Below are positions 6,945 through 21,272 of a stretch of 64,000 nt of DNA, piece by piece; the stretch's first letter is position 1, and the number at the start of each line of letters is the position of its first letter. Source of the stretch: an uncultured Gammaproteobacteria bacterium (GTDB taxonomy: Bacteria > Patescibacteriota > Microgenomatia > Levybacterales > UBA12049); contig CAZWXQ010000001.1 of assembly GCA_964637955.1 (NCBI GenBank), positions 21,936 through 85,935 on the forward strand, written 5' to 3'. The notes below the pieces were generated by a model. That model did no database searches and had not been told where the DNA came from. It worked only from the letters and a program-made list of their open reading frames with translations. The position numbers and the translations under genes were made by a program.

Positions 6945-7016
6945 CCAACAATTATATCAAAAGAAAATTATTTGGATAAATCTTTATTGCGTAATTAATG
7001 TAATATATTTTAATTT

Positions 7017-7250: not shown

Positions 7251-7307
7251 TTAAGAAATCGTAAGAATTTTGAAAGAGGCTAATCTAAAAATTATTAATT
7301 AAAATGT

Positions 7308-8390
7308 TTAATTTTTAGTGAAAGAAAATCCTCTACCATCTCTAATAATCTTGCTACTAACACCTGAAAGATTAGCTATAATATGTTGCTTTTGATCATC
7401 AAGCTTTTGATATTCTCTTTGTCTTAATTTAGATAAGCCAATTTTCATTATTTGCCCTCCTAAATAATAAAATCTCTCTCTTTCATTTAAAGGTCTTTCT
7501 TTTACTTTTTCCTCTTCTTCAGTAATTTCATCATCTGTTAAAACATCAAGTCTTTTAAGAGTATTTATTGCTTCATCAAGTGCTTTTTCCTCTTCTTCAG
7601 CATTTCCTGGCTGAGATGCTTTCCTTTTTGCTGCTTCAAAATATTCTATTTTATTAGCCAAATCAAGCATCGCTTTTCTATTTATACCTTCAGGGATATT
7701 TCTAATATTTAAAACAGCACTTGAAGAAATACCACGATAGCCTGGATGAGACCCGGTAAAACCTGTTCCAACAAATCTACCACCTTGTGGAATTCTACTT
7801 ATAGTAGTACTTACAACTTCTTCAAAAACTTTTGGTCCCAAATATCTTAAACTTTCAATTGCAAACGCTAAATCTACCGTATTAATTCCATGAGAATCTA
7901 GGAAAGCTTCAAGGGATTGAGTTCGAGAAAGAGTGTAATAAAAATTTTTTACATTTATTTGTTGATTTATGGCTTGGTTAAGAGAATCTATTTTTGAATA
8001 GTCAATTGCTATTGGTTTTTCTGTATCCTGTAGATTTGGTTCTTGGCTATCCGTAAGGCCAATTACATTTAGTCTTAATCCAGGATTATCAACTAAAAAA
8101 GCTTTTAATTTTAAACTCTGAAGATTGTATTCTTTTAAATCTTTCATCATAAATCCATCACCACTTCCTATATCTATAACTGTTACTTCGCTTCTGCCAT
8201 TTACAACCGCATCTTTGAGCCTATCAAGCATTAAACTATCTACTGATTCACCGGTTTCAGTGATAAGACCATCTATTGAACTTATTCCTCTTGCAAAATA
8301 TTTAGGTTCAGTCGGACCAAGGTATAGGCCAGTAACTGCTTTAGTGTCTGGGGGTGTAGCTGGAGGCAGCTCAGTTCCTAAATCGCTCAT
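7308..8390 (-). CDS. Class I SAM-dependent methyltransferase domain protein with a charged coiled C-terminal region
   Basis: Motif I is VIDIGSGDGFMMKDL. Confidence 0.5.
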   Translation of the reverse strand: MSDLGTELPPATPPDTKAVTGLYLGPTEPKYFARGISSIDGLITETGESVDSLMLDRLKDAVVNGRSEVTVIDIGSGDGFMMKDLKEYNLQSLKLKAFLVDNPGLRLNVIGLTDSQEPNLQDTEKPIAIDYSKIDSLNQAINQQINVKNFYYTLSRTQSLEAFLDSHGINTVDLAFAIESLRYLGPKVFEEVVSTTISRIPQGGRFVGTGFTGSHPGYRGISSSAVLNIRNIPEGINRKAMLDLANKIEYFEAAKRKASQPGNAEEEEKALDEAINTLKRLDVLTDDEITEEEEKVKERPLNERERFYYLGGQIMKIGLSKLRQREYQKLDDQKQHIIANLSGVSSKIIRDGRGFSFTKN

Positions 8391-8449
8391 TGATTTTGAT
8401 TATATCAAAAGCAATATCAAATCAGGTTCTTTTTGATATTTTTGACAGC

Positions 8450-8917
8450 TCAATTACAAAGTGATGGATTGTCCTTACAGAATTGCTGTTGTTTTTGAAT
8501 AGTTTCTTGAGTTCTTTTTTGAGCATCATTAAATTCTTTATTAAAGTTATCTATCCATTCTTTGCTGCCTAATTCTCCCGGCTTTGGAGTGGCATATGTA
8601 GGCGGTTTATAAGTGTCATTCGAAACACTCTTTTTATAAATTATTACAACAGTTGGAGCTGGCGCTTCGGTAGGCTCTATAGTAGGTTCAGCTGTTGGAT
8701 CTGGAATCATAGTTGGTATTGGTGCTTCTAATGCTTTTGAAATTGAATCAATATTCTTTTTAATGGGGTTAACTATTCTATTATTAATTTCTCCTGATTT
8801 AATTAATGCATAAGCAGATGAAGTAGCTAGAATCGTAATTAATAAAATAATTATTGTGAGAGTTAAGCCTGCTCGAAATGTAACTTGTTTTATATTTGTA
8901 TATTTTTTTGGTTTCAC
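8450..8917 (-). CDS. Membrane-anchored hypothetical protein with a Pro/Thr-rich linker and a C-terminal Cys pair
   Basis: N-terminal TM, linker PTAEPTIEPTEAPAPT, then a C-x7-C tail. Overlaps the LemA stop by 4 nt, so it is co-transcribed. Confidence 0.45.
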   Translation of the reverse strand: MKPKKYTNIKQVTFRAGLTLTIIILLITILATSSAYALIKSGEINNRIVNPIKKNIDSISKALEAPIPTMIPDPTAEPTIEPTEAPAPTVVIIYKKSVSNDTYKPPTYATPKPGELGSKEWIDNFNKEFNDAQKRTQETIQKQQQFCKDNPSLCN

Positions 8918-9450
8918 GTAGTTTGGAAAAAATCTTCTTCGTAGAATTTAAAAATAAAAGCAGCCAAAAGATTTGGAAAAGTTTGAATACTATTATTATA
9001 TTCCTGAACAGATCGGTTATAGTCTTCTCTATAGTGAGCTATATTGTCTTCCGTTTCTTTTAAATCTCTCTGAAGCTGAAGATAGTTTTCATTAGCTTTT
9101 AGCTCAGGATAATTTTCGACAACCATAAATATTGATTTTAATGTTTGAGTTAATAAGTTATCTGCCTGAGCCTTTTCTTGAACAGTTTTTGAATTATCTA
9201 GAGCAGATCTCGCTTCTGTGACTTGTGTGAATGTGGATTTTTCATGTTTTGCATATCCTTGAACAATTTCGACCAATTTGCCAATCAGAGAAGAGCGTCT
9301 TGTAAGTTGGATATCTATGTCAGAAAAATCGGTTTTAACTTGATTTCGATTTTTAATAAATGAGTTGTATCTTGTCAAAAGAAAAATTAAAACCAAAATT
9401 AAGATAATTGCTAAAACTCCAAGTACTGGAAATAGATTATTCATGTTCAT
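8914..9450 (-). CDS. lemA: LemA family protein
   Basis: N-terminal TM plus the characteristic LemA core (RYNSFIKNRNQVKTDFSDIDIQLTRRSSLIGKLVE). Confidence 0.75.
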   Translation of the reverse strand: MNMNNLFPVLGVLAIILILVLIFLLTRYNSFIKNRNQVKTDFSDIDIQLTRRSSLIGKLVEIVQGYAKHEKSTFTQVTEARSALDNSKTVQEKAQADNLLTQTLKSIFMVVENYPELKANENYLQLQRDLKETEDNIAHYREDYNRSVQEYNNSIQTFPNLLAAFIFKFYEEDFFQTT

Positions 9451-9557
9451 ATATTTATATTAGCATTTAAGTACTTAAACTCAAGTACTTAACTCTGATA
9501 ATCAAATCAAAATAGATAAATTAAATATATATTTTTTGAGGTTAGCTGGCTGCAGAT

Positions 9558-10058
9558 TTACTGCCCAGCTTTTCGGATTGCTTCAAGATCAAGTTTTTTC
9601 ATTGGCATGAATACAGCAGTTACTGCCTCTGCTTTTTCAGGGTCACGCATCATTTCATCTAAAATCCTCGGGACTACTTGCCATGTAACTCCGAATTTAT
9701 CTGTACACCATCCACACTGTTCTGCTTCTGGAACTGCTGATAACTTTTCCCAGAAGTAATCAATTTCATCCTGAGTATCACACTCAATAATATATGAGGT
9801 TCCGCCAGTAATCTTGAATTGTTCCATAGGGCCTCCGTTAAGGAACATGAAGCTAATCCCATCAAGTTCGCATTCAGCTGTCATAACAGATCCTTCAGGT
9901 ATGCCAGAGACTTCTTCGGATGCCTTTGGTGCTTTTGTGATGTCTCCAATTGTTGCAGAGTGCTCCCCAGGTGCTGAATTAAAAGTATCTATGTAATATT
10001 TTGCTGCCTCTTCGCCGTCGTTATTCGCGAACCAGAGACATGTTATTAGTTTACTCAT
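9558..10058 (-). CDS. VOC/glyoxalase-superfamily protein of the PhnB / 3-demethylubiquinone-9 3-methyltransferase-domain type
   Basis: N-terminal ITCLWF motif and the duplicated beta-alpha-beta-beta-beta module. GC is higher than the surroundings. TGTTAGAAT-N7-ATG. Confidence 0.65.
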   Translation of the reverse strand: MSKLITCLWFANNDGEEAAKYYIDTFNSAPGEHSATIGDITKAPKASEEVSGIPEGSVMTAECELDGISFMFLNGGPMEQFKITGGTSYIIECDTQDEIDYFWEKLSAVPEAEQCGWCTDKFGVTWQVVPRILDEMMRDPEKAEAVTAVFMPMKKLDLEAIRKAGQ

Positions 10059-10150
10059 TTTATTTATTCTAACATATTTTAATAATTTTTCAGTATTAGT
10101 TCTATAAGAATAATTGATATTACAATCAAGGGATAATTTTGATTATTAAA

Positions 10151-10537
10151 TTATTTTCTAATTTTTAATATTATAAAGCTTGCAATAGATATTTCTATTA
10201 AACTCAAAGGAACTGCAAATATCAAAATATTTAGTGGTAACACTTTTAAATTCCATAATGAAATCCACATTAGGATAAATCCTGCTAACCAAGACAGAAT
10301 AATACTTTGAGAAAATGTAAATTTAGTATTAATGAAATAAATTAATACAGCAAAACAAAGTGACCAAACGCCCCATGTCGCACCATTTATAGGTGTATCT
10401 GGAAAAATTAATCCTAAACGTTCAAAATGATTAACCCACATTGATTTAAATAAAATCTCATTTCTTAAAAATTCAGAAAAACTAATCCATAAAGTTGCCG
10501 CAAATATTGCTAACACTGAATATTTATTTAATTTCAT
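10151..10537 (-). CDS. Small integral membrane protein, hypothetical
   Basis: Four TM helices. TGATATAAT-N6-ATG. Confidence 0.45.
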   Translation of the reverse strand: MKLNKYSVLAIFAATLWISFSEFLRNEILFKSMWVNHFERLGLIFPDTPINGATWGVWSLCFAVLIYFINTKFTFSQSIILSWLAGFILMWISLWNLKVLPLNILIFAVPLSLIEISIASFIILKIRK

Positions 10538-10686
10538 AATAAAATTATATCAAAGGTTCTAATCTATTCCATGGTAGAAATAAATTGATATTTTAAAACT
10601 AGGCTAATTTATTTGGTTCCACCTAATAGAAAATGTCAGAACATATTTCATTAGTCGAATGTATTATGTATAATTTATTCACTATG

Positions 10687-10923
10687 AAAACAATGACTTG
10701 TAAACAGCTCGCTGGCGCTTGCGACATGGAGTTTCATACGGAGACATTTGATGAAGTGGCAAAGCTAAGTCAGCAACACGGAATGGAAATGTTTCAAAAG
10801 GGAGATGTTCCACATCTTGCTGCACAACAGGAGATGATGAAGATGATGTCCGACCCAAATGCTATGCAAAAATGGATGGACGAAAAGCGAAAAGAATTTG
10901 ACCTACTCCCAGAAGACAAATAA
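10687..10923 (+). CDS. DUF1059-like small protein. Start moved from 10633 to 10687.
   Basis: MKTMTCKQLAGACDMEF is a DUF1059-type N-terminus. TGTATAAT lies 9 nt upstream of 10687. The longer 10633 start sits inside a repeated intergenic element. Confidence 0.55.
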   Translation, partial: KTMTCKQLAGACDMEFHTETFDEVAKLSQQHGMEMFQKGDVPHLAAQQEMMKMMSDPNAMQKWMDEKRKEFDLLPEDK

Positions 10924-11010
10924 TCCTCAGGTTCGAGCTCCTAGCTCCCATTTCTGTATTTTCAAAACTAAAATATCTGGCGCCGAGCGGTAGATAAATT
11001 CAGAAATTTT
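10924..11010. repeat. Repeat family copy A. It contains a degraded plus-orientation tRNA-Asn T-arm/acceptor fragment and the box GAGCGGTAGATAAATTCAGAAATT.
   Basis: AGGTTCGAGCTCCTAGCTCCCA against the tRNA's AGGTTCGAGTCCTAGTCACGGA. GAGCGRTAGATAAATTCAGAAATT recurs at 12942-12970. Confidence 0.55.
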
Positions 11011-11468
11011 TAAGATAAAATTCTTTTTGCAGCGATTGGTTTGTAGTATTTAATAAACTTACCAAAATTCCAAATACTAGTACCATTATCAATTAAATTT
11101 GAATGATAGATTTTATTATCTCCGCAGTATATTGCAGTATGTAGTCTAATTATCCAATCTTTTCTATTTAATTCTTTATTTTCAATTCTAATTTTATCTG
11201 CATATATAATATCTCCCTCTTTAAGAAGATTTAAGGAATCTTTGGTAAAAAATCCTTCTTTAATAATAAATTTTCCAACTTTATTAAATGCTTTAGGATT
11301 TAAAAGTAATTCTGATTTGTAAAACTTTTTGTGAATTTTATAAAAGTAATATTGTAATGCTAATCTACAGTTTCCCTCATTAAATTCATCTTTTTTAAGA
11401 TCTCTTAAAAGTAATGGCCCTTTATCAAATTGATATTTAAAATGTTTTAAATCTTTTAACATTTTCAA
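11010..11468 (-). CDS. Hypothetical protein with a possible papain-like Cys...His arrangement (very tentative)
   Basis: ORF with CRLALQYY ... HTAIYCGDNKIYHS. TGATATAAT-N6-ATG. Confidence 0.4.
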   Translation of the reverse strand: MKMLKDLKHFKYQFDKGPLLLRDLKKDEFNEGNCRLALQYYFYKIHKKFYKSELLLNPKAFNKVGKFIIKEGFFTKDSLNLLKEGDIIYADKIRIENKELNRKDWIIRLHTAIYCGDNKIYHSNLIDNGTSIWNFGKFIKYYKPIAAKRILS

Positions 11469-11595
11469 ATTATATCAGAGGTCTTAATCCTGTTCGTGGT
11501 AGGAGCAGATTGATTTATTTAACTGAGGCAAATTTATTTGACTCCGCTGGCAGGCATTTGCCCTGCAAGGATTGAAGGAAAAAAATCCGAACTTA

Positions 11596-12204
11596 TTATG
11601 CTTCAATAATTTGATGCTTATTATCCTTAATTAAAATTGCTTGCTGATCAGTTATTGGAATAATTTTATATTTATCTGAATATTCTTTAAGCACTTTATT
11701 ATGGAGTGTGGAATATTTTGCGTTTTTAAAATGAGGTAATATAACAAAATCTACTAATCCAAATCCTTCGCTAGATTCTAAATTTGCTTCACTTGGATCA
11801 TCAAAGTCTTTAACAGATTCAATGTTTGGGCCTGCTATAACTGATCCAGCACTTGAGCCGATATATATAACACCTTCACTAATTAATCTCTCAACAACTT
11901 TATCAAAACCACTATTCTTAGCTTTTTCTAATAAATAGAAAGTATTTCCGCCTGCCACAAAAATAATATCCACATTTTTCAAGCTCTTTTCAAGATCTTC
12001 TACGCTTTTATTTTTTAAATCTAAATCAAATACTTTAAAACCTAGCTCTGTTAGTTTATTTCTGTCATCTTCTATCCATGGTTTATTCTCATACGGATCT
12101 GCAGCTGTTGGAATAAAACCTAAAGATAAGTTTTCGGGTTTTTGATCTAATAAAGGTAAGAGTAAATGAAGCGTCTTTGATGCTTGAGAGGTCAAGAATA
12201 ACAT
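11596..12204 (-). CDS. Peptidase E / S51-family (class I glutamine amidotransferase-like) dipeptidase
   Basis: IFVAGGNTFYLLEKAK ... YIGSSAGSVIAGPNI with Ser nucleophile context. TGCTATAAT-N6-ATG. Confidence 0.75.
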   Translation of the reverse strand: MLFLTSQASKTLHLLLPLLDQKPENLSLGFIPTAADPYENKPWIEDDRNKLTELGFKVFDLDLKNKSVEDLEKSLKNVDIIFVAGGNTFYLLEKAKNSGFDKVVERLISEGVIYIGSSAGSVIAGPNIESVKDFDDPSEANLESSEGFGLVDFVILPHFKNAKYSTLHNKVLKEYSDKYKIIPITDQQAILIKDNKHQIIEA

Positions 12205-12292
12205 AAGGTGATTATAGCAGAATGAGGCTAAAAATTTCGTTCTGCTAGCAAGAGAAGATTAGAACTTATTTCATCGCATTAATTTGAAATTT

Positions 12293-12784
12293 TTATTGGG
12301 AGAAATATTCAGTTATTTTTGTAGGAGTTAAAACAATACTTACTCGCTCTTCTCTAGAAAACTCTTCAGACATTATTTGCTCAGCACCTTCTGGATCCAT
12401 ATATCGCTCTGCTAAGTGCCTAATGTCTCTTTGTGAAGCTTCATGATCATCATTTAATAAAACTGAGCCTCTCATTGTCACATACTGATAATTTCCTCTG
12501 CTTACTAAAAACGATACATGGGGATTTTCTTGTAAATGCCTATACTTATGCCTGAACTTAGCAGTATTCATTAGGATTGTGCCGTCATCTTGAAGGGCAT
12601 ACCACATTTCTGTCTGAACAATTTCTCCATCTGGTCTTAAAACGGCGAGAATACCTTTCAGGGGTTTTCTCTCAAAAGGTTCAATCAAAAGTTCGCGAGC
12701 ACGGTCTGAAAATCCTACACCTGTAACAATTTCTCTTGTTGGTGGCTCCACTGTAATTATTCCTTGATCATCTGCTTCTGTCAT
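12293..12784 (-). CDS. Pyridoxamine 5'-phosphate oxidase-like FMN-binding split-barrel protein
   Basis: PNPOx-fold pattern (LKGILAVLRPDGEIVQTEMWYALQDDGTILMNT). Higher GC. TGATATAAT-N7-ATG. Confidence 0.65.
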   Translation of the reverse strand: MTEADDQGIITVEPPTREIVTGVGFSDRARELLIEPFERKPLKGILAVLRPDGEIVQTEMWYALQDDGTILMNTAKFRHKYRHLQENPHVSFLVSRGNYQYVTMRGSVLLNDDHEASQRDIRHLAERYMDPEGAEQIMSEEFSREERVSIVLTPTKITEYFSQ

Positions 12785-12950
12785 GGGGCAAATTATATCA
12801 TAATTGAGGCTAAAAATGATGCACCGCGACTAGTCCTTTGGCAAGTTCAGGATTACGAATTGCGCTAAGACTCATTCTCCGATGAATTCTATTCAAAAGA
12901 AGTCATAAAAAAATCCACCGCAAATGGGTGGATTATTTTATGAGCTCCGA
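12785..12950. repeat. ~165-nt intergenic repeat, copy B, ~80% identical to 18148-18311. It contains a TGATATAAT promoter, a TTGAGGCTAA box, a pseudo tRNA-Asn 3'-half and an orphan terminator hairpin ending in TTATGAGCTCC.
   Basis: Direct alignment by eye with copy F at 18148-18311. The hairpin ATCCACCGCAAATGGGTGGAT lies at 12913-12933. Confidence 0.75.
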
Positions 12951-12991
12951 GCGATAGATAAATTCAGAAATTATTATGTTAATATTTAGAT

Positions 12992-13423
12992 ATGGAAGAT
13001 TATCAGCTTGTTTTAGAAGAGGGTGAGCCTAATCCTGAAGATAAAAAAGTTATTGTGGATGGCTTACTTGAAAACCATGCTAGTAGTGGTCATCCGCGAG
13101 AGCCAAAAGAAATCTTTTCAATTCTTTTGAAAAATAATGATGGAAAGTTAATAGGAGGAGTAATTGCCTCTATTCTTTGGAATGGAATGGAGATTGATTC
13201 TTTATGGATAGAGAAATCACTTAGAGGAAAAGGCGAAGGAGGAAAACTCATTGAAGCTGCGGAAAAAGAAGGTTTAAAAAGAGGTTGCACAATTTCCTAT
13301 ACAAATACATTCTCATGGCAAGCGCCTGAATTTTATGAAAAGATGGGATACTCTCTGTATGGAAAGTTGGATGGATTTCCAGAAGGAAACAGTCTTAGTT
13401 ATTACTTCAAAAAATTATCTTGA
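12992..13423 (+). CDS. GNAT family N-acetyltransferase
   Basis: Acetyl-CoA-binding region (RGKGEGGKLIEAAEKEGLKRGC) and GNAT C-terminal motif. Confidence 0.7.
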   Translation: MEDYQLVLEEGEPNPEDKKVIVDGLLENHASSGHPREPKEIFSILLKNNDGKLIGGVIASILWNGMEIDSLWIEKSLRGKGEGGKLIEAAEKEGLKRGCTISYTNTFSWQAPEFYEKMGYSLYGKLDGFPEGNSLSYYFKKLS

Positions 13424-13455
13424 ATTTGGATCCTATAAATAAGTGAAGTTATTAA

Positions 13456-13983
13456 TTATTTTGTCGGATAAATCCTATATTCAACTTCATCCAACATATT
13501 TCCTGCCATATTTTTCTTTTTATATTCATCTTCTATTACTCCTCCTAATGATTCTGCAATTTTTCTACTTGGAATATTTCTACTATCAACTGGATAAATT
13601 ATATATTTATAAGATTTATTTTTATCTATCCATTCTTTCAAAGACTTAACTGCTTCTCTTCCATATTTATGTCCATGAGCACTTTTTTTAATCCAAATGC
13701 CAAGCTCAGGAGTATCTGTATTAAACTTACTAACACCACCATGACCAATAAATTCATTTGTAAGTTTATTTAGAATAACAACTTGTAGCTGCTCTCCTTT
13801 TTCCATCGCTCTTCTAGAAATGTTAATAAAAGACAAGGTTTCTTCAATCTTTTTTGCTGGCTTAGGATACATTAAGACTGTTAATTCATCAGAAAATTCT
13901 TTAAAAATATCTTGGGCATATTTATCAGATGTTGGAACAAGTTTTAGTCTTTCTGATTCTATAATAACACTAAGTAAATTCAT
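13456..13983 (-). CDS. GNAT family N-acetyltransferase (RimL/RimJ-like)
   Basis: ERLKLVP N-terminal motif and HGHKYGREAVKSL. TGGTATAAT-N6-ATG. Confidence 0.75.
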   Translation of the reverse strand: MNLLSVIIESERLKLVPTSDKYAQDIFKEFSDELTVLMYPKPAKKIEETLSFINISRRAMEKGEQLQVVILNKLTNEFIGHGGVSKFNTDTPELGIWIKKSAHGHKYGREAVKSLKEWIDKNKSYKYIIYPVDSRNIPSRKIAESLGGVIEDEYKKKNMAGNMLDEVEYRIYPTK

Positions 13984-14005
13984 GATTTGATTATACCAGA
14001 AGCAT

Positions 14006-14054
14006 TTTGAGGCTAACTTGCTCCACCTAGTAGAAAATGTCAGAACCTATTTCC
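14006..14054. repeat. Short repeat (GGCTAA...CCACCTARTAGAAAATGTCAGAAC) shared with 10601-10650
   Basis: Near-identical 30-mers CCACCTAATAGAAAATGTCAGAACATATTT and CCACCTAGTAGAAAATGTCAGAACCTATTT. Confidence 0.6.
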
Positions 14055-14558
14055 TTAATCAAAGTTCTTTTTAATTATCTCTAGACAATCATCTAAAGAG
14101 GTCTTTTCTGTATCTAAAATAATCGCTCCATCAATGGGATTGTTTAAAACTTTTAAATATAATTGTTCGATCAAGTCTTTTCCAAAATGAGGTCTATTAT
14201 ATTTCTCAGCTCTCTCGTCTTCTCTTTTTTGTAACGTTTCTAAAGAGCATTGTAATTGATAAATGACAACTGGAACATTTTTAGATTTAGCTAATTCGAT
14301 AGCAGCAATAGCATGTTCTGGATTTTTGAAAATCCCATCAAAAACTACACTAAATCCATCCGACAATAAGCGATCTACAACTGCGAGAGCAATATTATTT
14401 ACCTCATCTAATGAGTCACCCGAGTCTTCAGAAAAAAAAGGTTTGAGATTATCAATCTTAAGCCAAACAACTTGCAATTCTTTACTTCTTAATTTCTCAC
14501 CTAACGTAGTTTTTCCACTAGCAGGTGCACCCCGGAGTATTACTAGTGATTGTTTCAT
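14055..14558 (-). CDS. P-loop kinase / AAA_33-like ATP-binding protein
   Basis: Walker A is ILRGAPASGKTT. TGTTATAAT lies 6 nt upstream (plus 14565-14573). Confidence 0.7.
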   Translation of the reverse strand: MKQSLVILRGAPASGKTTLGEKLRSKELQVVWLKIDNLKPFFSEDSGDSLDEVNNIALAVVDRLLSDGFSVVFDGIFKNPEHAIAAIELAKSKNVPVVIYQLQCSLETLQKREDERAEKYNRPHFGKDLIEQLYLKVLNNPIDGAIILDTEKTSLDDCLEIIKKNFD

Positions 14559-14667
14559 TATTAAATTATAACAGGTTCGATCGTCCTATTCGGGGTACTA
14601 GAAATTGAGGCTAAAATACGTTGCCCCCTAAAGGACTTATTCATCAACAGAGAGATTGAGTTTGACT

Positions 14668-14985
14668 TTATACTTGAGGATCTTGAGGTTTTCTATCCAT
14701 TACTGGTTCCACATTAAACTGTGTTTCATGTACAAAATATCTAACATATCCGAACTCTGGAGGATTCTCTCTTGACTGAACTATCTCATCATCTGTGTCA
14801 AGCATTGCCACTCTACCATCCATTAAAACTACTTCCGTTGGTCCTTTTAAAACAACAGCAGGCCAAAGAAATGATGAATCAGGATCTCTTTTATCTCTCC
14901 ATTTCCATGAAGCTGGTTCGCCCAATGTTTGGAGAGATTCAGGGGTTACTGTTCTTAAGTCTATATGTCTGGGGATTTCGGCCAT
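14668..14985 (-). CDS. Hypothetical protein (higher GC)
   Basis: 105-aa ORF with non-repetitive composition. Flanked on both sides by repeat-family copies. Confidence 0.4.
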   Translation of the reverse strand: MAEIPRHIDLRTVTPESLQTLGEPASWKWRDKRDPDSSFLWPAVVLKGPTEVVLMDGRVAMLDTDDEIVQSRENPPEFGYVRYFVHETQFNVEPVMDRKPQDPQV

Positions 14986-15019
14986 GCAGCAAAGATATAA
15001 TAATAGATTTTTTTGTCAA

Positions 15020-15165
15020 TAATATGGTGATTCGTGACTATGTCCTTCCGAGGATATCCGCTCATAAATTCGCTTCAAGACTCAAGAGAGTTCTATTCAA
15101 AAGAAATCATAAAAATTGCTGGATAAAATCCGACTTCTTTTTATGAGCTCAATGCAATGGAAGAA
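15020..15165. repeat. Partial copy (E) of the tRNA-Asn-associated repeat family
   Basis: It shares GTGACTATGTCCTTC..., GAGTTCTATTCAAAAGAAATCATAAAAA and CCGACTTCTTTTTATGAGCTC with copies B and F. Confidence 0.6.
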
Positions 15166-15183
15166 TTTAGAATTTATTTTGGA

Positions 15184-15783
15184 TTATGAGTTCCACATTT
15201 GAGGGGTAAGTATAGGAATATTTAGATTAGTTCTTTCACGAGTTTTATCGCCATAATCATTCCCATTTTTTATCATCATATTGATTTTATTATGATGGAA
15301 ATTCAAATACATTTCTGCTTTTACTTTATCATTTTTTTTCTTGTTCCAATTTTGCTTTAGCTTCGTAAGTCTGTGCTTCGATTGAAAATACTTGAAGAGC
15401 AATTTCTGTTTCATGATAAGTAGTCGTAGTATAAGAATATTGGTCGTTGAATTGCCACCTAAGGTCTTTATTACTATAGTTTTAGTTAATTGCTCCCATG
15501 ATTTGAATTGTGGGTGTTCTGAGTTAGGTAAATCACGCAATGAAGAAATTGATTTTATTTGATTGCATATTAGCTCTGAATTGTTTAACATTCCACTGAT
15601 TATAACAGAGGAATTATTTAATCTATATGGAATTTTAAAATGAGATATTAACATAATCCTAATGGAGTGATGTTTGATGTATGGCTCGTGCTCTGCTGGT
15701 ATGCGTTTGTCATGAGCGAAATCGGAAGAAAAGATTACATCGGATGATTTGATTTCAAGGGGCATTGAGAGTAGAATATCCAT
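15184..15783 (-). CDS. Doubtful ORF, more likely non-coding or a degraded gene
   Basis: Low-complexity, N/K/I-rich translation. Its start codon is 3 nt from the divergent radical SAM start, leaving no room for a promoter, and the genome's usual TGnTATAAT is absent. Confidence 0.2.
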   Translation of the reverse strand: MDILLSMPLEIKSSDVIFSSDFAHDKRIPAEHEPYIKHHSIRIMLISHFKIPYRLNNSSVIISGMLNNSELICNQIKSISSLRDLPNSEHPQFKSWEQLTKTIVIKTLGGNSTTNILILRLLIMKQKLLFKYFQSKHRLTKLKQNWNKKKNDKVKAEMYLNFHHNKINMMIKNGNDYGDKTRERTNLNIPILTPQMWNS

Positions 15784-15786
15784 CCA

Positions 15787-17130
15787 ATGAGCGCAGAAAA
15801 ACTAGATTTATCATATAAACCTGCAAATCCAGTTGCGGGAGATAATAGGTATGGATTGATGGTTTTTCCATCTTTAGATGATTCTTTTTATGGAAGAGAA
15901 AAAAGACTTTTATTGACTCAAAGACTTGAACCATCGGTATTATATGTTGCTCCTCAAGAAGGTCAATCTGAATTTATTTGGGATAATCAACCTAGAGAGG
16001 GCGTAGATCAATATATTTGTTCCGTATACACAAGAGGATGGAATGAATTTAGAAAATTCGCAGAGCAAGTAGGAAGAGAAAAAGTGGTAGCCGGAGGATA
16101 TCACCCAACTGCGATTCCAGAGGATGCATTTAAAGTGGCTCATCAGGTTGTCGCAGGTTATTGTGGAAATATAGATGAGATTTTGGCACAACCTGATGGA
16201 ATTTATACAGGACTTTTTGCATTTACTCCAATGAGAAGAGATCTCATAGATCAGAGAGATTTGAAACAAGTTTATCCAGACGTTCAATCGGAACATATCG
16301 TTGGATCCATGGTTTCATCCGTCGGATGTCCTTTCGATTGTGATTTTTGTTCAACCCCCAAGATGTCGAATAGAAGAATGAGAGTTTCTCCCATGGAATA
16401 CGCTGAACAAGAAATTGCGGATCTTCAGTCAAGAGGGGTAAATTCCGTTTTTGTTAGAGATGAGAGTTTTGCGACAAATCCTCAGATAGTGGAAGTGGCT
16501 AGAATGTTTAAGGGAAAATTTGATTTAGTTTATTCTTTTGGGACAGGAAATGTAATGGGATTAAATGAAGATCTAGTAAGGCAATTAGGTGATTTTGGCT
16601 GGCACTCTTTAAATTTCGGATTAGAAGACGTGGGGAAAAATTATAGAAAAAATAAACTTCTTCAGCGAGCAGCAGACAACTGTAGAGAAAATGGTATAGG
16701 CGTGGTTTTATCATTTATAGTAAATCCTGATGGGAAAACACAAGACGAAGCGAGAGCAAATTATCAAGCTTTATATCAAGCGTTTAATGAGTTAAAACCT
16801 TGGCAAGTCTGTGCCAATTTCCTTATGCCTATGCCAGGAACTGCAATATGGGAACAATATAAGAGTAGAATTACTGAAGCAGATTTTGATAAATTTGATT
16901 CCAAAACTCCTATACTTTGTCCACCAGATTTAGTGGAATGGCATAGGAGAATGATAGTAGCTGTACAGTTAAAATACTATTACAGCAAGCTTTATAATAC
17001 ACAAGTAAGAAGATTTGAAAATGGAGACACATTACACCTAAGAATAGAGGAATTAAAAAAAGAATTTGGATTTGAAAATCATGATTGGGATGAGTTTCTA
17101 AAATTCCCTACTAATACATCAAATGAGTAA
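15787..17130 (+). CDS. B12-binding-domain radical SAM protein
   Basis: N-terminal cobalamin-binding-like region (VVAGGYHPTAIPED) and CxxxCxxC (CPFDCDFC). Elevated GC. Confidence 0.8.
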   Translation: MSAEKLDLSYKPANPVAGDNRYGLMVFPSLDDSFYGREKRLLLTQRLEPSVLYVAPQEGQSEFIWDNQPREGVDQYICSVYTRGWNEFRKFAEQVGREKVVAGGYHPTAIPEDAFKVAHQVVAGYCGNIDEILAQPDGIYTGLFAFTPMRRDLIDQRDLKQVYPDVQSEHIVGSMVSSVGCPFDCDFCSTPKMSNRRMRVSPMEYAEQEIADLQSRGVNSVFVRDESFATNPQIVEVARMFKGKFDLVYSFGTGNVMGLNEDLVRQLGDFGWHSLNFGLEDVGKNYRKNKLLQRAADNCRENGIGVVLSFIVNPDGKTQDEARANYQALYQAFNELKPWQVCANFLMPMPGTAIWEQYKSRITEADFDKFDSKTPILCPPDLVEWHRRMIVAVQLKYYYSKLYNTQVRRFENGDTLHLRIEELKKEFGFENHDWDEFLKFPTNTSNE

Positions 17131-17605
17131 ACCTACGCTTGGTCTAGTACTTGGTAGATTCCAGCCTCTTCACCCGGGACATCTTTCCTTGATTGACACA
17201 GCATTTAAAGAAAACGATTCTGTTGTGATTTGTATTGGCTCAGCGCAAAAAGCTGAGCCTTATACTATAGAAGAACGACATGAACAAATGAAAAAACAAT
17301 TAGATGTACTTCATTATTCTCAAGAAAAATATAGAATTGTTGATCTTATTGACCCCGATCCTATACAAATATGGCCGCCCTATGTAAAAGATACTTGCAG
17401 AATAACGGATGAAACAGTTAACAGATTTTACAGAGCAGAGACACTTCCTGATGAATATGCGCGAGAATTAAACAGCTTAGGATTTGAACTTAGGATTGTT
17501 CCTAGGGTATCATTTTATATTGAGGGTAATGATGGACTATATAGATCTGTAAGTTCGGCAACGGAATTACGGGAAGTAAGAGGAATTGGAAAAGAAAGAG
17601 CTTAA
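17123..17605 (+). CDS. nadM: NadM-type (archaeal-like) nicotinamide-nucleotide adenylyltransferase / cytidylyltransferase-fold protein
   Basis: GRFQPLHPGH (HxGH motif), ICIGSAQ, and a C-terminal SxxxxR-like region. Overlaps the radical SAM stop by 8 nt. Confidence 0.7.
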   Translation: MSKPTLGLVLGRFQPLHPGHLSLIDTAFKENDSVVICIGSAQKAEPYTIEERHEQMKKQLDVLHYSQEKYRIVDLIDPDPIQIWPPYVKDTCRITDETVNRFYRAETLPDEYARELNSLGFELRIVPRVSFYIEGNDGLYRSVSSATELREVRGIGKERA

Positions 17606-17634
17606 TCTATTCTGGCAGATAAAATCCGAACTTA

Positions 17635-18147
17635 TTATAGTTCTGTGACAGAGGCTATTTGAGAGGTATATTTGCCCATCCACTTTAATCCATTCTCTAG
17701 ATTTTCTTTGTTAGTTGCTCCTACTGCTTCTTTTACTACAATTACCTTATAGCCTCTTTCATTTGCAGCGTCACTTGTTGATTGAACACAAACATGGGAA
17801 ACAAGTCCACAAAGCCATACGGTCTCAATTTTATTTTTCTTTAGAATAATATCTAATTCTTTGACACTGAATGCACTATAGTTTTCTTTTTCAAATACAT
17901 GATCATCTTTCATAATTTCTAATTCATCAATAAGTTCTGCTTCCTTAGTTCCTTTAATCATCAAATATTTACTATTAAATCTACTAATAGTTTTTGGATT
18001 ATCAATAATTTTAAAATAAAATATAGGAATATTTTTTTCCCTTGCTATATTTATTAGTGACAAAAGATTCTTTTTAAAATCTTCTGGTTTATAAAGATGA
18101 GGCATCATTCCTTTTTGAACATCAATTACAAGTAATGCTGTATTCAT
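17635..18147 (-). CDS. Isochorismatase-family cysteine hydrolase, possibly a nicotinamidase (PncA-like)
   Basis: LLVIDVQ, a catalytic Cys in VWLCGLVSHVCVQST, and a conserved Lys region. TGTTATAAT lies 6 nt upstream (plus 18154-18162). Confidence 0.75.
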   Translation of the reverse strand: MNTALLVIDVQKGMMPHLYKPEDFKKNLLSLINIAREKNIPIFYFKIIDNPKTISRFNSKYLMIKGTKEAELIDELEIMKDDHVFEKENYSAFSVKELDIILKKNKIETVWLCGLVSHVCVQSTSDAANERGYKVIVVKEAVGATNKENLENGLKWMGKYTSQIASVTEL

Positions 18148-18311
18148 GGGGAAATTATAACAGATTTGAGGCTAAAAAACGGTGCTCAGTGACTAGTCCT
18201 TCGACATGCTCAGGATTGCGAATTGCGATTCGCTTAGACTCATTTTTCGAAGAGTTCTATTCAAGAGAAACCATAAAAAAAGCCGAGCAAAACTCGACTT
18301 CTTTTTATGAG
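18148..18311. repeat. Repeat family copy F. It sits between tRNA-Asn and the isochorismatase gene and carries the tRNA terminator, a diverged pseudo 3'-half of tRNA-Asn and the isochorismatase promoter.
   Basis: Minus-strand read: tRNA end, hairpin AGTCGAGTTTTGCTCGGCT plus T7, then CGCAATTCGC...GTCGAAGGACTAGTCAC. This resembles tRNA positions 23-70 (GCAATTCGC...GTTCGAGTCCTAGTCAC). Confidence 0.75.
18272..18300 (-). terminator. Rho-independent terminator immediately downstream of tRNA-Asn
   Basis: 7-bp stem (AGTCGAG/CTCGGCT, one G-U pair), 5-nt loop, followed by T7 on the minus strand. Confidence 0.65.
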
Positions 18312-18383
18312 CTCCGTGACTAGGACTCGAACCTAGAACCTTTTCGTTAACAGCGAATTGCTCTACCATTGAGCTATCACGGA
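18312..18383 (-). tRNA. tRNA-Asn (anticodon GTT)
   Basis: Folded by hand from the sequence TCCGTGATAGCTCAATGGTAGAGCAATTCGCTGTTAACGAAAAGGTTCTAGGTTCGAGTCCTAGTCACGGAG. 7-bp acceptor, all Watson-Crick. D stem GCTC/GAGC. Anticodon loop CUGUUAA with U33 and A37. T stem CTAGG/CCTAG with a TTCGAGT loop. Discriminator G. CCA is not encoded. Confidence 0.85.
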
Positions 18384-18609
18384 TTATTCATTTCGTGTCG
18401 CCAGCTCTACCACTTCGGCTTCGCACAGGCTTACGGAATGTTTATTTCGCAATCAAAAATATTGCGAGTGAAAAAGATTTTATCATATAAATGAAGCTAG
18501 ATAAAGAGTTATTTAGTCCCAATTTTATTGGTGCGATTCTATTGGATTAACAATAATTATAAGCAATTGCTTGTTGAAATTTAAAAATGCAGGTGTTATA
18601 GTTCCAGTT

Positions 18610-19698
18610 ATGGAATCTGAAAAGAAAAAAGATAATACAAAAATAATAGCCATTGTTTTGGGAGTAGTTTTGATTGGAGTGGTAGGAATATTTCTCTTTA
18701 AAAAGTTTGGATCAGGTTTATCTACTTCTACTTCCTCCACATCATCGGCAGCAGTAACAGGAAATCTAAATATAAATGGTGTAGTGCCAAGTGGGGCTGT
18801 TTTTGTCCTTTCAGCTAAAGATACAACAGGTGGATCTTCAAGTGATTTTCAGACAATTCAAAATCCAACCGATCAAAGTTCCTGGACATTTAGCAGTGCG
18901 CAGTCAGGCAAAACATATATTATAGTAGGAACTTTGAAATCCTCTAATGGTGCAGAACTTACTAAGTCAGTTCCGCTTACAGTCACAGCTCCAGCAACAA
19001 ATCAAATGGTTACTATAAACCTTGCAGGAAAAGCTCCAACTGGAGTATCTGAAATATCAGGAACAGTAAGAGTAAATGGATATTATCCTAGTGGATCTAC
19101 TATTTCACTTCTAGCGAAGACTCCAAATACTTCATATGAAGTAGTAAGAGAAGGTCTTGCGGCTCAAGCATCAACAACAGTTTCTACTGATAAAGCGGTT
19201 GCGGGACAAGAATATACAATAATAGGATATCTGTATAATGCAAGTGGAAATAAAATAGGAGAATCAAGTGAATTAGCGATCGTAGCACCTGCAAGAAATG
19301 AAGTACTTACAATCAACTCAAATGCAACAGCTCCTACTCCAGAGCCATCTCAAGCGCCTGCTAAGTCAAAAATCTCAGGAACAATTCAACTAAATGGCAT
19401 AGCTCCAAGTAACAGTAGGATCGTTATTCTGCAAGCTCCTATGAATAGTAATGACTTTACAGTAGCAATTGATAATGTGCCAGCAGTAAATGGTCAGGCA
19501 TGGGTTTGGCCAAATGCATTAAATGGGACATGGTATAACATGCAAGCTGTCCTAAAGCAGAGGCAATCAAATGGCACAGATATAGACGTAGCTCTTTCCG
19601 GACAGCAAACAGTTGCTGCACCTGCAATAAACGTTATGTTTACGATTAATTCAGGTATTGCACCAAGTGTAACTCCATCACCTACCCCAACACAGTAA
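18610..19698 (+). CDS. Membrane-anchored surface protein with three tandem ~110-aa repeats. Start moved to the ATG at 18610.
   Basis: TM anchor, then repeats beginning VTGNLNINGVVPSG / ISGTVRVNGYYPSG / ISGTIQLNGIAPSN and each ending ...TINS. Paralogous to 24825-26150. TGTTATAGT lies 7 nt before 18610. Confidence 0.6.
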   Translation: MESEKKKDNTKIIAIVLGVVLIGVVGIFLFKKFGSGLSTSTSSTSSAAVTGNLNINGVVPSGAVFVLSAKDTTGGSSSDFQTIQNPTDQSSWTFSSAQSGKTYIIVGTLKSSNGAELTKSVPLTVTAPATNQMVTINLAGKAPTGVSEISGTVRVNGYYPSGSTISLLAKTPNTSYEVVREGLAAQASTTVSTDKAVAGQEYTIIGYLYNASGNKIGESSELAIVAPARNEVLTINSNATAPTPEPSQAPAKSKISGTIQLNGIAPSNSRIVILQAPMNSNDFTVAIDNVPAVNGQAWVWPNALNGTWYNMQAVLKQRQSNGTDIDVALSGQQTVAAPAINVMFTINSGIAPSVTPSPTPTQ

Positions 19699-20007
19699 GG
19701 GTTAATTATTTCCCCAAATTAATTTATAAATTTTTAGATTAATTACGTAACAAATTCCTACTGTAATTAGAAAAAAAGTTATGAGGGGTTTTCCAAAAAA
19801 TGCAACATCAATAAGCTCTATTAAACAAAGAGTGTGCACAGCGAATATAAAATAAGCTAAGTTTTTCCAAAAATTATCTGTATCCATATTATTGGATTTC
19901 AGACTACAAATTAATGACTAATTAGTCCTTAAATCGTCAACTGAGGTTTTAAATGAGGTTTATTGCTTAATTAAAGTCCTTAATTATAAGTATTTTTCTT
20001 CTGCAAT

Positions 20008-20391
20008 CTACCGATTTTTATTTTCAAGTTCTGATTCGTAATTTTCTTTTAAAATAAATACTTCCATCATCTCTCCTGTTTTAGTGCTTATATCGCTATG
20101 CGAGCTTATAACTTCTTGTCCTGTAATTTCCTCTACGATTAAGCTTAGATTAGATGTTAAAACTTCATGAAGCTTTTTTCTTATGTCTTTAACTATTTCA
20201 ATACCATTTTTTCCTTCAAGAAGTTTTTCTTCGATGGGTAGAAGTTTTCCTTTTAATCGCACTATTACCATGTCTTCAACTATATATATGCGTGTTACTT
20301 CTGGGCCTTGGCCAATTGTATCTACATAAAATTTAGTAACTTCCTTTGAGATCTTGTCTTTGATTTGTCCTATTGTAAGTTTATTTTCCAT
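20008..20391 (-). CDS. DUF2294 family protein
   Basis: Strong family signature (GRGPEVTRIYIVEDMVIVRLKG ... ITGQEVISSHSDISTKTGEMMEVFIL). Confidence 0.65.
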   Translation of the reverse strand: MENKLTIGQIKDKISKEVTKFYVDTIGQGPEVTRIYIVEDMVIVRLKGKLLPIEEKLLEGKNGIEIVKDIRKKLHEVLTSNLSLIVEEITGQEVISSHSDISTKTGEMMEVFILKENYESELENKNR

Positions 20392-20398
20392 AATTTAC

Positions 20399-20440
20399 AT
20401 AAAAAAACCAGCAATATTTTAATCATTTAAATATTACTGG
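20399..20440 (-). terminator. Rho-independent terminator for the 20532-21170 gene
   Basis: 12-bp imperfect stem CCAGCAATATTT/AAATATTACTGG, followed by T7 on the minus strand. Confidence 0.55.
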
Positions 20441-20531
20441 TGTACTGCTAAACGATTTAAAAATCCCCCAACTGTCAACCAAGCAGATTATACTAGAATT
20501 TTATTTCTTACTCAATAGATTTTAAATAAAA

Positions 20532-21170
20532 TTACTGATTCTTATCAGTTTCTACAAGTGTGGTCCCATTTATTTTGAAGTATTTGGAAACTCCGACAGA
20601 TGGTTGCTCAGTCATAGGTGCGCCTTGCGGTCTATCAGCATAATTTACTGTGTATATCTCATTTTGAATATCTTTTGTTTGGGGTGAAATCCTGTCGCCA
20701 AGAATTATGGAATTTGTTCCATCATAAGTATAAGTTTTTGTATTATTAAGTGCTGTAGAAGCGTAATAGAAGGTTCCACTTCCTCCAGACACCACTAAAA
20801 TTACTCCTGCATCATTTGCGCTGTCTCCATTTAAATCTCCAATTGTGGGTTCCCCAAACATAGTTGTTTTTCCGTCTGCTGACTTGCCATTTATTAAAGT
20901 TACTTTTTCTCCCTCAATAGTGTATGTAGTATTTTGTGGATCTTTAGCTACATTATCATCGTTAATATTATTATCTGAGATTGGTGTTGGAGTTGTTTTC
21001 GAAGTTTCAGAAGTGCCGCTGCTATTATTATTTGATTCTTTTATGGCAATTCCGGTAACTTGTTTAATCATTTCCTGGGTTTGTTTATTTTGATAAGCAA
21101 AATATCCTATTATTACCAATAGAATTATTATTATTACTGCAATTGCTCCAATTTTCTGATTCTTTGTCAT
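20532..21170 (-). CDS. Membrane-anchored secreted hypothetical protein with a low-complexity N/S/T-rich linker
   Basis: N-terminal TM (IGAIAVIIIILLVIIGYF) followed by an extracellular domain. Confidence 0.5.
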   Translation of the reverse strand: MTKNQKIGAIAVIIIILLVIIGYFAYQNKQTQEMIKQVTGIAIKESNNNSSGTSETSKTTPTPISDNNINDDNVAKDPQNTTYTIEGEKVTLINGKSADGKTTMFGEPTIGDLNGDSANDAGVILVVSGGSGTFYYASTALNNTKTYTYDGTNSIILGDRISPQTKDIQNEIYTVNYADRPQGAPMTEQPSVGVSKYFKINGTTLVETDKNQ

Positions 21171-21272
21171 TTCTTGGTAATCTTATAATAGAAATTATTG
21201 CTTAAGCAATAAGCAAAATTATATTCATTTAGCTTCCTTTATGCTATAATCACGAGAATATAATTTAGTTAA

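Follow-up and report, generated by a model that had tools for sequence, protein, structure and literature searches.

The 64-kb stretch of DNA analysed here (64,000 nucleotides in total, referred to as the window) contains a single tRNA gene, tRNA-Asn(GTT), and the tract on the 3′ side of this gene is likely to be a tRNA-anchored additive genomic island, formed by repeated integration at the tRNA gene of a Levyibacteriota-like bacterium (Microgenomates, Patescibacteria/candidate phyla radiation, CPR). The intron-less tRNA gene, which a first-pass annotation made from the sequence had placed at 18312-18383, was identified at 18311-18383 on the minus strand (ARAGORN; Rfam RF00005, 70.4 bits). The tract starts at the tRNA 3′ end and extends towards lower coordinates, with 14 short genes, the majority on the minus strand, between the tRNA gene and position 9558. 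Relics of the tRNA 3′ end are found in the junctions of this tract; they are confined to it and share the orientation of the tRNA, the genes adjoining the tRNA are polymorphic (present or absent) among related genomes, and integrase-bearing elements are located at the same tRNA gene in relatives. The first-pass annotation had proposed repeated site-specific integration at tRNA-Asn, leaving relics of attachment (att) sites, with the integrase encoded elsewhere. This proposal is supported by profile searches, synteny, the polarity of the relics, and the integrase elements of the relatives.

Public metagenomes and GTDB genomes were scanned with the final 31 nt of the tRNA as query, which resulted in 27 loci (L numbers in the following), in which the tRNA was identical or 94-100% identical to that of the window. 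The closest loci belong to metagenome-assembled genomes (MAGs) of Candidatus Levyibacteriota and Patescibacteria; in L028, the genes are likewise ordered Ni-SOD, FemAB, PcrA, TIM, and PcrA shares 80% amino acid identity. The PhnB-like protein, encoded by the first far-side gene common to the relatives, is 87-91% identical on the amino acid level in L020, L031, and L033, and the L035 gene shows 84% nucleotide identity. The distance between the tRNA and this gene is 58 nt in L020, 57 nt in L033, approximately 1.1 kb in L035, 2.6 kb in L031, and 8.25 kb in the window, and the number of genes in between is 0 (L020, L033), 2 (L035, in the order tRNA, PNPOx, glyoxalase, PhnB), 4 (L031), and 13 (window). 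Since the spread ranges from 57 nt to 8.25 kb across five genomes, the tract is a hypervariable, insertion-prone additive island, and the presence or absence of cargo between tRNA and PhnB-like gene, which the first-pass annotation had suggested as a check, is borne out by the syntenic comparison. Single units recur in different surroundings. The gene encoding a 150-amino-acid protein is common to the window and L031 (79% amino acid identity), where it has other neighbors and relics on both sides. PNPOx is located behind a full repeat copy (copy B) in the window, directly behind the tRNA in L035, and, surrounded by other genes, 2.9 kb behind the tRNA in L036; its position directly behind the tRNA in L035 indicates that an internal full copy fits a former tRNA-proximal junction that was pushed inward by later insertions. 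Two further searches, a contig scan with the 375-amino-acid protein adjoining the tRNA and exact look-ups of five window proteins, returned no relative in the first case and contigs of the same organism only, with no alternative junctions, in the second. An exact look-up of the 375-amino-acid protein gave no entry.

Despite differing cargo, the window and L031 share 97% identity over the 116 nt of tRNA and terminator. Together with a GC content and codon usage like those of the rest of the genome, which fits an exchange within the lineage, this would be compatible with a replacement island, in which the whole tract was swapped by homologous recombination between its flanks (the tRNA with its terminator, and PhnB/DUF2975 at the opposite end), the repeats being incidental duplications. 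Such a replacement is improbable in view of the differences among relatives, which consist of the gain and loss of units (0, 2, 4, and 13 genes) and not of equivalent alternative clusters. In addition, the shared cassettes occupy different positions, and replacement leaves the serial tRNA-end relics in one orientation unexplained.

Each intergenic gap of the tract was compared with the whole window by sensitive self-blastn. Full copy F (18148-18316) matched full copies B (12786-12949; 77% over 172 nt, E 7e-29) and E (14994-15150; 68% over 170 nt, E 6e-16), which also matched each other (64.5%, E 2e-10). Shorter pairs were 10542-10620 and 11467-11545 (73%, E 8e-11), 10601-10649 and 14010-14053 (82%, E 1e-7), and 10980-11022 and 12944-12986 (86%, E 9e-8), whereas no repeat with E<1e-3 was detected outside 10.5-18.4 kb of the 64 kb. 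The full copies F, B, and E, for which this comparison had been suggested in the first-pass annotation, are therefore statistically real and confined to the tract. The repeats had been described as members of a single family; what stands is their reality, while the unit itself is a composite of a tRNA-end relic, a nine-nucleotide box with the sequence TTAGCCTCA, and a leaderless promoter that is used genome-wide.

The description of the relics as decayed pieces of tRNA-Asn could not be demonstrated from the tRNA alone, but it was supported by intermediates found in relatives. The live tRNA is directly followed by TTAGCCTCA in L021 and L023, and well-kept relics are present in L032 (CCTAGTCACGGAGC-AAA-TTAGCCTTA) and L019 (CTACTCGGAGC-AAA-TTAGCCTCA), with similar units of relic and box in L029 and L016/L034. 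A profile hidden Markov model was built from six foreign-genome sequences, namely four relics and two true tRNA ends followed by TTAGCCTCA. It recovered ten window sites, all intergenic, all on the strand of the tRNA, and all located from 10.6 to 18.35 kb: the tRNA itself, 14053-14007 (E 4e-7), six sites with E 0.002-0.011 (12975-12943, 12272-12223, 12833-12803, 18196-18165, 10649-10601, and 11011-10968), and two weaker ones (15178-15146, E 0.09; 14624-14604, E 0.23). The background of this search starts at E>2, and there was no better match in the other 56 kb of the window. Thus, nine relics exist besides the tRNA, arranged as direct repeats in its orientation, each of them weak when compared with the tRNA alone. 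A second-round profile detected further relics in L021, L023, L031, L032, and L035. All 11 matches in the relatives are on the downstream side of the tRNA and share its orientation (0 matches in 90.6 kb upstream vs. 11 in 95.3 kb downstream, binomial p 6e-4), of which four (L016, L019, L029, and L032 at 3607) had been profile seeds and L034 is apparently the same sequence as L016. In the more divergent island of L036, relics of the L036 tRNA were not detected. Viral contigs scanned for the tRNA 3′ half gave 0 matches; a scan of these contigs for CGGAGC-N3-9-TTAGCCTCA resulted in more than 120 matches, which were rejected as chance, since the specified bases alone match.

A genome-wide intergenic repeat similar to repetitive extragenic palindromes or miniature inverted-repeat transposable elements (REP/MITE-like), or a regulon module, would likewise place similar boxes in many intergenic regions, and two features of the junctions resemble such an arrangement: the promoter TGnTATAAT-N6-7-ATG is truly genome-wide (15 open reading frame starts in 64 kb), and TTAGCCTCA is more strongly conserved than its surroundings. 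An equal density of the repeats elsewhere, given in the first-pass annotation as the finding that would speak against att relics, was observed neither within the 64 kb nor in 186 kb of related loci. In particular, the profile of relic plus TTAGCCTCA had no match below E 2 in the other 56 kb, the matches in relatives were distributed 0 to 11 between the 90 kb upstream and the 95 kb downstream of tRNA-Asn, the boxes grade into exact tRNA-end copies in relatives, and they show neither a significant fold nor an Rfam family. These data largely refute boxes that are not recombination scars, an explanation which we consider extremely improbable.

Read in the orientation of the tRNA, a junction comprises up to four parts. 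The first is the relic, which has an A-rich start, continues with GTTCT..., and ends with ...CTAG..GGAGC; it represents a worn copy of the tRNA segment between the anticodon loop and the 3′ end (TTAACGAAAAGGTTCTAGGTTCGAGTCCTAGTCACGGAGC), in which 23-29 of 40 tRNA positions are kept. The second part, TTAGCCTCA, follows 3-9 A/T bases after the relic. It is exact on the minus strand at 18175, 14614, 14016, 12813, and 12231, has one or two mismatches at 11532 and in the 10538-10632 junction, and is still exact where the adjoining relic is decayed. In relatives, the 9-mer is located behind live tRNA-Asn ends (L021 3596; L023 6823) as well as behind relics. TTAGCCTCA might be a binding site or half-site of a recombinase or another protein. 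Two other assignments were ruled out, that of a -35 box by a spacing to the -10 box that varies from 9 to 47 nt, and that of a remnant of the 3′ end of an integrase gene by its absence behind the tRNA in L022, L163, and L167. The third part is TGnTATAAT, 6-7 nt ahead of ATG. An extended -10 box (TGnTAnAAT) was found 6-8 nt before ATG at 15 open reading frame starts throughout the window (for example at 1768, 2819, 5996, 6959, 8407, 10074, 27036, 34183, and 48714); it is the ordinary leaderless promoter of the organism, used genome-wide, and not a part of the att relic. This implies that leaderless mRNAs are a general feature of the organism. The promoter scan also placed an own promoter ahead of nearly every tract gene and shifted two start codons (15783 to 15591 and 11468 to 11462).

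The fourth part, a terminator hairpin and approximately 70 nt between a first and a second relic, is restricted to F, E, and B. Copy B had been thought to carry a copy of the tRNA's own terminator; a hairpin with a T-run is indeed present (12912-12934) and occupies the position that the tRNA terminator has at 18275-18305, but its stem differs (TCCACC/GGTGGA in B vs. GTCGAG/CTCGGC behind the tRNA). A hairpin with another stem but the same position and T-run is a positional homologue of the tRNA terminator and no sequence copy of it. The stretch between the terminator and the second relic is a decayed tRNA of nearly full length: the L031 orthologue aligns to tRNA positions 14-73 (p<0.0005) and the stretch in copy F to positions 13-73 (p 0.008), whereas the alignment was not significant in B and E. 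The individual junctions, beginning at the tRNA, are as follows.

18148-18310, minus strand: full copy F, with terminator (18275-18305), pseudo-tRNA (~18165-18268), TTAGCCTCA (18167-18175), and promoter TGTTATAAT (18154-18162); profile match at 18160-18209.
17606-17634: copy G, a truncated relic start; 14-nt exact match, E 0.06-0.95.
14986-15183, minus strand: full copy E, with relics at 15146-15178 and ~15018-15062 and a degenerate terminator-like stretch; 27/40 and 23/40 positions match the tRNA 3′ part, profile E 0.09.
14559-14667, minus strand: junction D, with a weak relic (14603-14627), exact TTAGCCTCA (14606-14614), and promoter TGTTATAAT (14565-14573); T-arm-like piece in opposite orientation at ~14572-14591 (plus strand, p 0.0095).
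13984-14054, minus strand: junction with the best-preserved short relic (14001-14057; 28/40 positions match the tRNA), TTAGCCTCA (14008-14016), and promoter TGGTATAAT; foreign-genome profile E 3.9e-7.
12785-12991, minus strand: full copy B, with a relic ending in ...CGCTCGGAGCTC (12942-12980), terminator hairpin and T-run (12912-12934), a second relic (12797-12840), TTAGCCTCA (12805-12813), and promoter TGATATAAT; profile E 0.002 and 0.007.
12205-12292, minus strand: junction with relic (12216-12275), TTAGCCTCA (12223-12231), and promoter TGCTATAAT; profile E 0.002, second-round E 6e-10.
11469-11595, minus strand: junction of a second type, ...CAGCGGAG/TCAAATAAATTTGCCTCAG..., then ~50 nt and promoter TGATATAAT; 86% identical over 70 nt to the sequence directly behind the true tRNA-Asn 3′ end in L023, weak second-round profile match (E 0.67).
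10924-11009, minus strand: copy A, with relic (10960-11013), between the convergent genes 11010-11462 (minus) and 10633-10923 (plus); relic 86-93% identical to the first relic of B, profile E 0.011, second-round E 7e-8; T-arm-like piece in opposite orientation at ~10925-10949 (plus strand, local shuffle p 0.0015).
10538-10632, minus strand: junction with relic (10596-10652), TTAGCCTAG, a second-type arm (10542-10620), and promoter TGATATAAT; profile E 0.0099, second-round E 5e-9.

Copies G and D of the first-pass annotation are weakly supported, G by its 14-nt match and D by E 0.23 in the independent and 0.004 in the second-round profile search. The inverted T-arm described for copy A is the best non-self Smith-Waterman match in the window, but its score is barely above background (30 vs. 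28). Single-strand folds of six junctions on both strands gave z values from -1.5 to +1.2, with copy A alone being significant (-2.3/-3.5). A permissive Rfam scan of 9-19 kb detected, besides the tRNA, chance-level matches only.

The tract genes are shorter than the other genes (172 vs. 305 amino acids, p 0.003). Pfam confirmed the annotations as PhnB-like, peptidase E, PNPOx, two GNATs, kinase, radical SAM, and nadM and added an isochorismatase family gene; for five tract genes no Pfam family was assigned, and DUF1059, which had been suggested for 10633-10923, was not recovered there at E<0.01. The genes are listed from the tRNA inward.

17635-18147, minus strand: isochorismatase family (Pfam).
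17123-17605, plus strand: cytidylyltransferase/NMNAT-like (Pfam).
15787-17130, plus strand: radical SAM, with a weak B12-binding match (Pfam).
15184-15591, minus strand: hypothetical protein; start shifted from 15783 by the promoter at 15599-15607.
14668-14985: 105-amino-acid gene product without family, behind full copy E.
14055-14558: P-loop kinase, AAA_33/zeta/CPT-like (Pfam), behind junction D.
13456-13983: GNAT (Pfam), behind junction 13984-14054.
12992-13423, plus strand: GNAT (Pfam), convergent with GNAT 13456-13983.
12293-12784: PNPOx (Pfam), behind full copy B.
11596-12204: peptidase E (S51; Pfam), with a minus-strand junction ahead.
11010-11462, minus strand: hypothetical gene, 150 amino acids; start shifted from 11468 by the promoter; homolog in the tRNA-Asn island of L031.
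10633-10923, plus strand: gene without Pfam family.
10151-10537: 128-amino-acid protein of unknown family, behind junction 10538-10632.
9558-10058, minus strand: PhnB-like (3-dmu-9_3-mt; Pfam).

The region 15184-18147 forms the first, tRNA-proximal cargo block. Within it, the isochorismatase family gene (possibly a nicotinamidase) and the NMNAT-like gene (nadM of the first-pass annotation) are convergent neighbors (17123-18147), a pair that hints at NAD-salvage cargo; the radical SAM gene and the NMNAT-like gene overlap by 8 nt. At the other end of the tract, no relic was detectable ahead of the PhnB-like gene (10059-10150).

Two regions bordering the tract differ among genomes as well. The genes from LemA through abhydrolase (4555-9557) are absent between PhnB and HTH/DUF2975 in L020, L031, and L035, and on the 5′ side (18384-30850) the tRNA and Ni-SOD are 1.3-4.1 kb apart in relatives vs. 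12.5 kb in the window. In neither of these variable regions (4555-9557 and 18384-30850) were tRNA relics detected. With respect to the conserved Ni-SOD/RNB flank, tRNA-Asn has the reverse orientation in L024, L030, and L008 (vs. L020, L028, L031, and the window), and in L026 the MpsC gene (5394-6167) is inverted relative to the tRNA. The inverted T-arm-like pieces of the window (~10925-10949 and 14572-14591, plus strand) may be traces of inversions such as those in relatives. Eleven of the loci (L020, L022-L025, L027, L029-L031, L033, and L034) agree with Levyibacteriota MAGs and the window in gene order, with protein identities of 70-90%; the title "uncultured Gammaproteobacteria bacterium" of these GTDB TPA_asm MAGs is probably a placeholder and no classification.

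A recombinase is encoded at tRNA-Asn in relatives. In L022, a large serine recombinase of 524 amino acids (Resolvase, Recombinase, and Zn_ribbon_recom domains; phrog_95 integrase) is oriented convergently to tRNA-Asn, and in three different forms of the integrase (L022, L163-L166, and L167) the last codons of the serine recombinase gene overlap the final ~13 nt of the tRNA. Behind the L022 recombinase, a primase-polymerase and a weak small-terminase-like match were found; a LOOT RNA (RF03000, 83 bits) is located at 6806-6923 inside this serine-integrase element, near the weak small-terminase-like gene. More than 337 close homologues of the L022 recombinase (60-93% identity) were obtained, with Roizmanbacteria, Daviesbacteria, Pacebacteria, and other Microgenomates as named sources. 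The contexts of three homologues were fetched, and two of them show the recombinase at tRNA-Asn as in L022. The first (L163-L166, 83% identical protein) adjoins a tRNA-Asn with a different acceptor stem, with sigma-70 and DnaG on the far side and phage-like regulators together with a restriction/helicase system inside. In the second (L167, 72% identical protein), the tRNA-Asn contains an intron, and a tyrosine recombinase is additionally encoded 1.4 kb from the tRNA. The Daviesbacteria homologue (L168-L170) has no adjoining tRNA. The occurrence at tRNA-Asn in L022, L163-L166, and L167 reveals a conserved family of integrative elements that uses the tRNA-Asn 3′ end in this clade and carries phage-like and defence cargo.

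The L022 tRNA was initially taken for an exact 39-nt partial tRNA forming an att site. This assignment was withdrawn, as the first 15 nt resemble the 3′ end of a group I intron (L013, L035, L036); the tRNA is probably whole and cut at the end of the 8-kb sequence section. Group I introns (RF00028, 67-101 bits) split the anticodon loop of tRNA-Asn in several relatives after ...CTGT, with TAACGA... continuing the exon.

L013, 7661-7893: group I intron in tRNA-Asn.
L035, 9670-9884: group I intron in tRNA-Asn.
L036, 6826-7051: group I intron in tRNA-Asn.
L167, ~7108-7300: group I intron in tRNA-Asn.

The intervening sequence of L036 contains an open reading frame of 116 amino acids (6572-6922) with CxxC and HH motifs, which by eye resembles an HNH homing endonuclease. 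The insertion point of the introns corresponds to the 5′ edge of the tRNA relics of the island.

In the proposed mechanism, site-specific recombination, rather than another process, would have built the array, with a recombinase that is presumably encoded on transient elements and works in trans. The relics begin at TTAAC, which suggests that the crossover lies in the anticodon loop. With each integration, the element would supply a new tRNA 3′ part, and the old one (~40 nt, anticodon loop to tRNA end) would be pushed deeper into the island together with its downstream flank. The displaced copies would decay and form a chain of relics, the newest adjoining the tRNA. The resulting chain comprises ~12 units over 8.25 kb, with each gene-bearing unit composed of relic, TTAGCCTCA, leaderless promoter, and one to four small genes, usually one. 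As terminator and pseudo-tRNA are normally located directly behind the live tRNA, F, E, and B are probably tRNA-proximal flanks of donors that mark three larger blocks. Such flanks may have been carried in through imprecise excision and left behind once the element proper was excised, as proposed for Prochlorococcus islands. Old relics may also act as secondary integration sites; single genes between relics would then behave like cassettes, which would account for the regular occurrence of one relic per gene. Reshuffling and inversions are probably added by recombination between the repeated junctions.

The same regularity leads to a different possibility, in which each unit of relic, TTAGCCTCA, promoter, and gene is a mobile cassette and the live tRNA end is the insertion site. 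Microgenomates of the CPR would then possess an integron-like system based on a tRNA gene, with promoter-bearing cassettes (tRNA-Asn 3′ exon plus TTAGCCTCA) that a recombinase acting in trans, perhaps the serine recombinase whose gene overlaps the tRNA, inserts at the live tRNA and reshuffles among the relics. There is about one relic per gene, the relic-preceded genes all have the orientation of the tRNA, and all eight sites with relic and TTAGCCTCA are followed by a promoter and a gene of the same orientation within 10-50 nt. Units of a single gene between relics were also found in L019, L023, L029, L031, and L032. One and the same junction box occurs beside unrelated genes in different genomes (window 13980-14052 and the metagenome contig L019, 84% over 73 nt), and the 150-amino-acid gene and PNPOx have different neighbors in different genomes. 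Furthermore, TTAGCCTCA is exact beside decayed relics at a spacing of 9-47 nt from the -10 box and is hence no promoter element, and stop codons of open reading frames adjoin or overlap the beginning of the relic that follows. Several observations nevertheless make an integron-like array rather unlikely, both in its general form and in the version with the serine recombinase. No attC-like hairpin is formed (fold z near 0 in five of six junctions), no integrase of the IntI type or any other type is encoded nearby, and neither a circular intermediate nor population heterogeneity was seen in the few contigs of the same samples. The cassettes bear their own promoters, unlike integron cassettes, and a passive origin is possible, with old relics being used as secondary sites when ordinary elements excise imprecisely.

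Several results weigh against repeated integration at tRNA-Asn. With the tRNA 3′ half alone as query, neither Smith-Waterman nor nhmmer searches placed the window relics above background, and the relics match the tRNA at just 23-29 of 40 positions. There is no clear gradient of decay with the distance from the tRNA, and relics precede almost every gene with a regularity beyond that expected from the mere serial integration of whole elements. Recombinase, integrase, or transposase families were not detected in the scanned window open reading frames of at least 90 amino acids (nearly all such in the 64 kb), and Phage_integrase had no match anywhere among them; the first-pass annotation had correctly stated that the window lacks an integrase. 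Likewise, TTAGCCTCA is not present behind the tRNA in the integrase elements of relatives (L022, L163, L167). As a consequence of both, the link between the recombinase family and the scars of the window is circumstantial, by place rather than by sequence. The far end (attR) of the intact elements lies outside the sequence seen, which bears on the duplicated length and on the crossover. Finally, the tract genes show no compositional signal of foreign origin in GC content or codon usage. The window has a GC content of ~32% throughout, and mean GC and GC at third codon positions (GC3) are 0.327 and 0.225 in tract genes vs. 0.327 and 0.216 in the other 55 genes (p 0.98 and 0.84). The visibly higher GC content ascribed to the cargo is true of two or three single genes only, the GC3 outliers being 10633-10923, 15184-15591, and the PhnB-like gene. 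At the level of the tract, the comparison of cargo with the remaining genes is flat, and the argument for an island from GC and codon usage fails. The cargo donors probably belonged to the lineage of the host.

Prophages, integrative and conjugative elements, and islands of the classical type integrate into the 3′ part of a tRNA gene, restore the tRNA, and leave a displaced partial tRNA at their far end. In contrast to these, the window holds scars and cargo only, and ~ten tandem scars in 8 kb are unusual. With a tRNA at its edge, tRNA copies as direct repeats, additive variation, and integrase elements in relatives, the window displays the features of a tRNA-anchored additive island. Prochlorococcus islands are shaped by tycheposons, transient elements that leave captured flanking DNA behind (Hackl et al., bioRxiv 10.1101/2020.12.28.424599). 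Similar to these mostly integrase-free islands, the tract combines a full-length tRNA at the edge with scattered partial tRNA copies and flexible genes, and the "captured flank" step would yield repeated blocks of tRNA end, proximal flank, and genes like F, E, and B. As with tycheposons, satellite-like integrase elements (integrase, primase, small terminase) are found at the same tRNA elsewhere (L022). Differences are the CPR host, the tRNA-Asn, which is not among the seven tRNAs of that study (bioRxiv 10.1101/2020.12.28.424599), the much denser relics (about one per gene), and the additional conserved box. Moreover, the window has no recombinase of its own, and the integrase adjoining the tRNA in relatives is a large serine and not a tyrosine recombinase, so that the element is not assigned to the tycheposons. 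A Prochlorococcus/tycheposon identity, which the GC content had at first suggested, was rejected in view of the tRNA and of relatives that belong to Levyibacteriota/Patescibacteria.

In "Ca. Methylopumilus", fGI-2 contains direct repeats of the final 20 bp of tRNA-Lys, ranges from 330 bp to 42 kb, and has no integron (PMC10872708). The streamlined genome, the direct repeats of a tRNA end, the variable size, and small genes of unknown or resistance-like function are shared with the tract. The tRNA and the phylum differ, the repeats in the window are ~40 nt long, decayed, and fused to TTAGCCTCA and a promoter, and relatives provide a candidate for the recombinase family. Clusters of attC sites lacking integron integrases (CALIN) resemble the tract as arrays of mostly single-gene units in one orientation, bounded by repeats and with no integrase nearby, and in their detoxification- or resistance-like cargo (GNATs, CPT/zeta-like kinase, VOC/PhnB-like). 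The repeats of the tract are tRNA-derived, unlike those of CALIN, and each unit has its own promoter; no imperfect-palindrome hairpin of the attC type was formed in the six folded junctions, and no RYYYAAC/GTTRRRY cores were recognized by reading. The literature searched contained no account of gene acquisition in CPR/Patescibacteria, of such islands in CPR, or of relevant serine recombinases. The kind of element is already known; new details concern the tRNA, the group to which the host belongs, how dense the scars are, the TTAGCCTCA box, and the family of associated serine recombinases.

The island extends the pattern of tRNA-anchored additive islands, described for marine and freshwater bacteria with streamlined genomes, to a candidate phylum of episymbionts with tiny genomes, its source being a tiny groundwater bacterium of a little-studied CPR group. 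It provides a concrete hot spot, tRNA-Asn(GTT), which is conserved across Levyibacteriota-like genomes; its scars can be read as a record of ~ten events within 8 kb, and relatives contribute a candidate recombinase family located at this tRNA. The combination of tRNA-end relic and TTAGCCTCA is a simple marker for flexible genes in CPR MAGs. The cargo, which includes GNAT, kinase, VOC/PhnB-like, PNPOx, peptidase E, and nicotinamidase-like plus NMNAT-like proteins, suggests that these bacteria trade in small detoxification and salvage functions.

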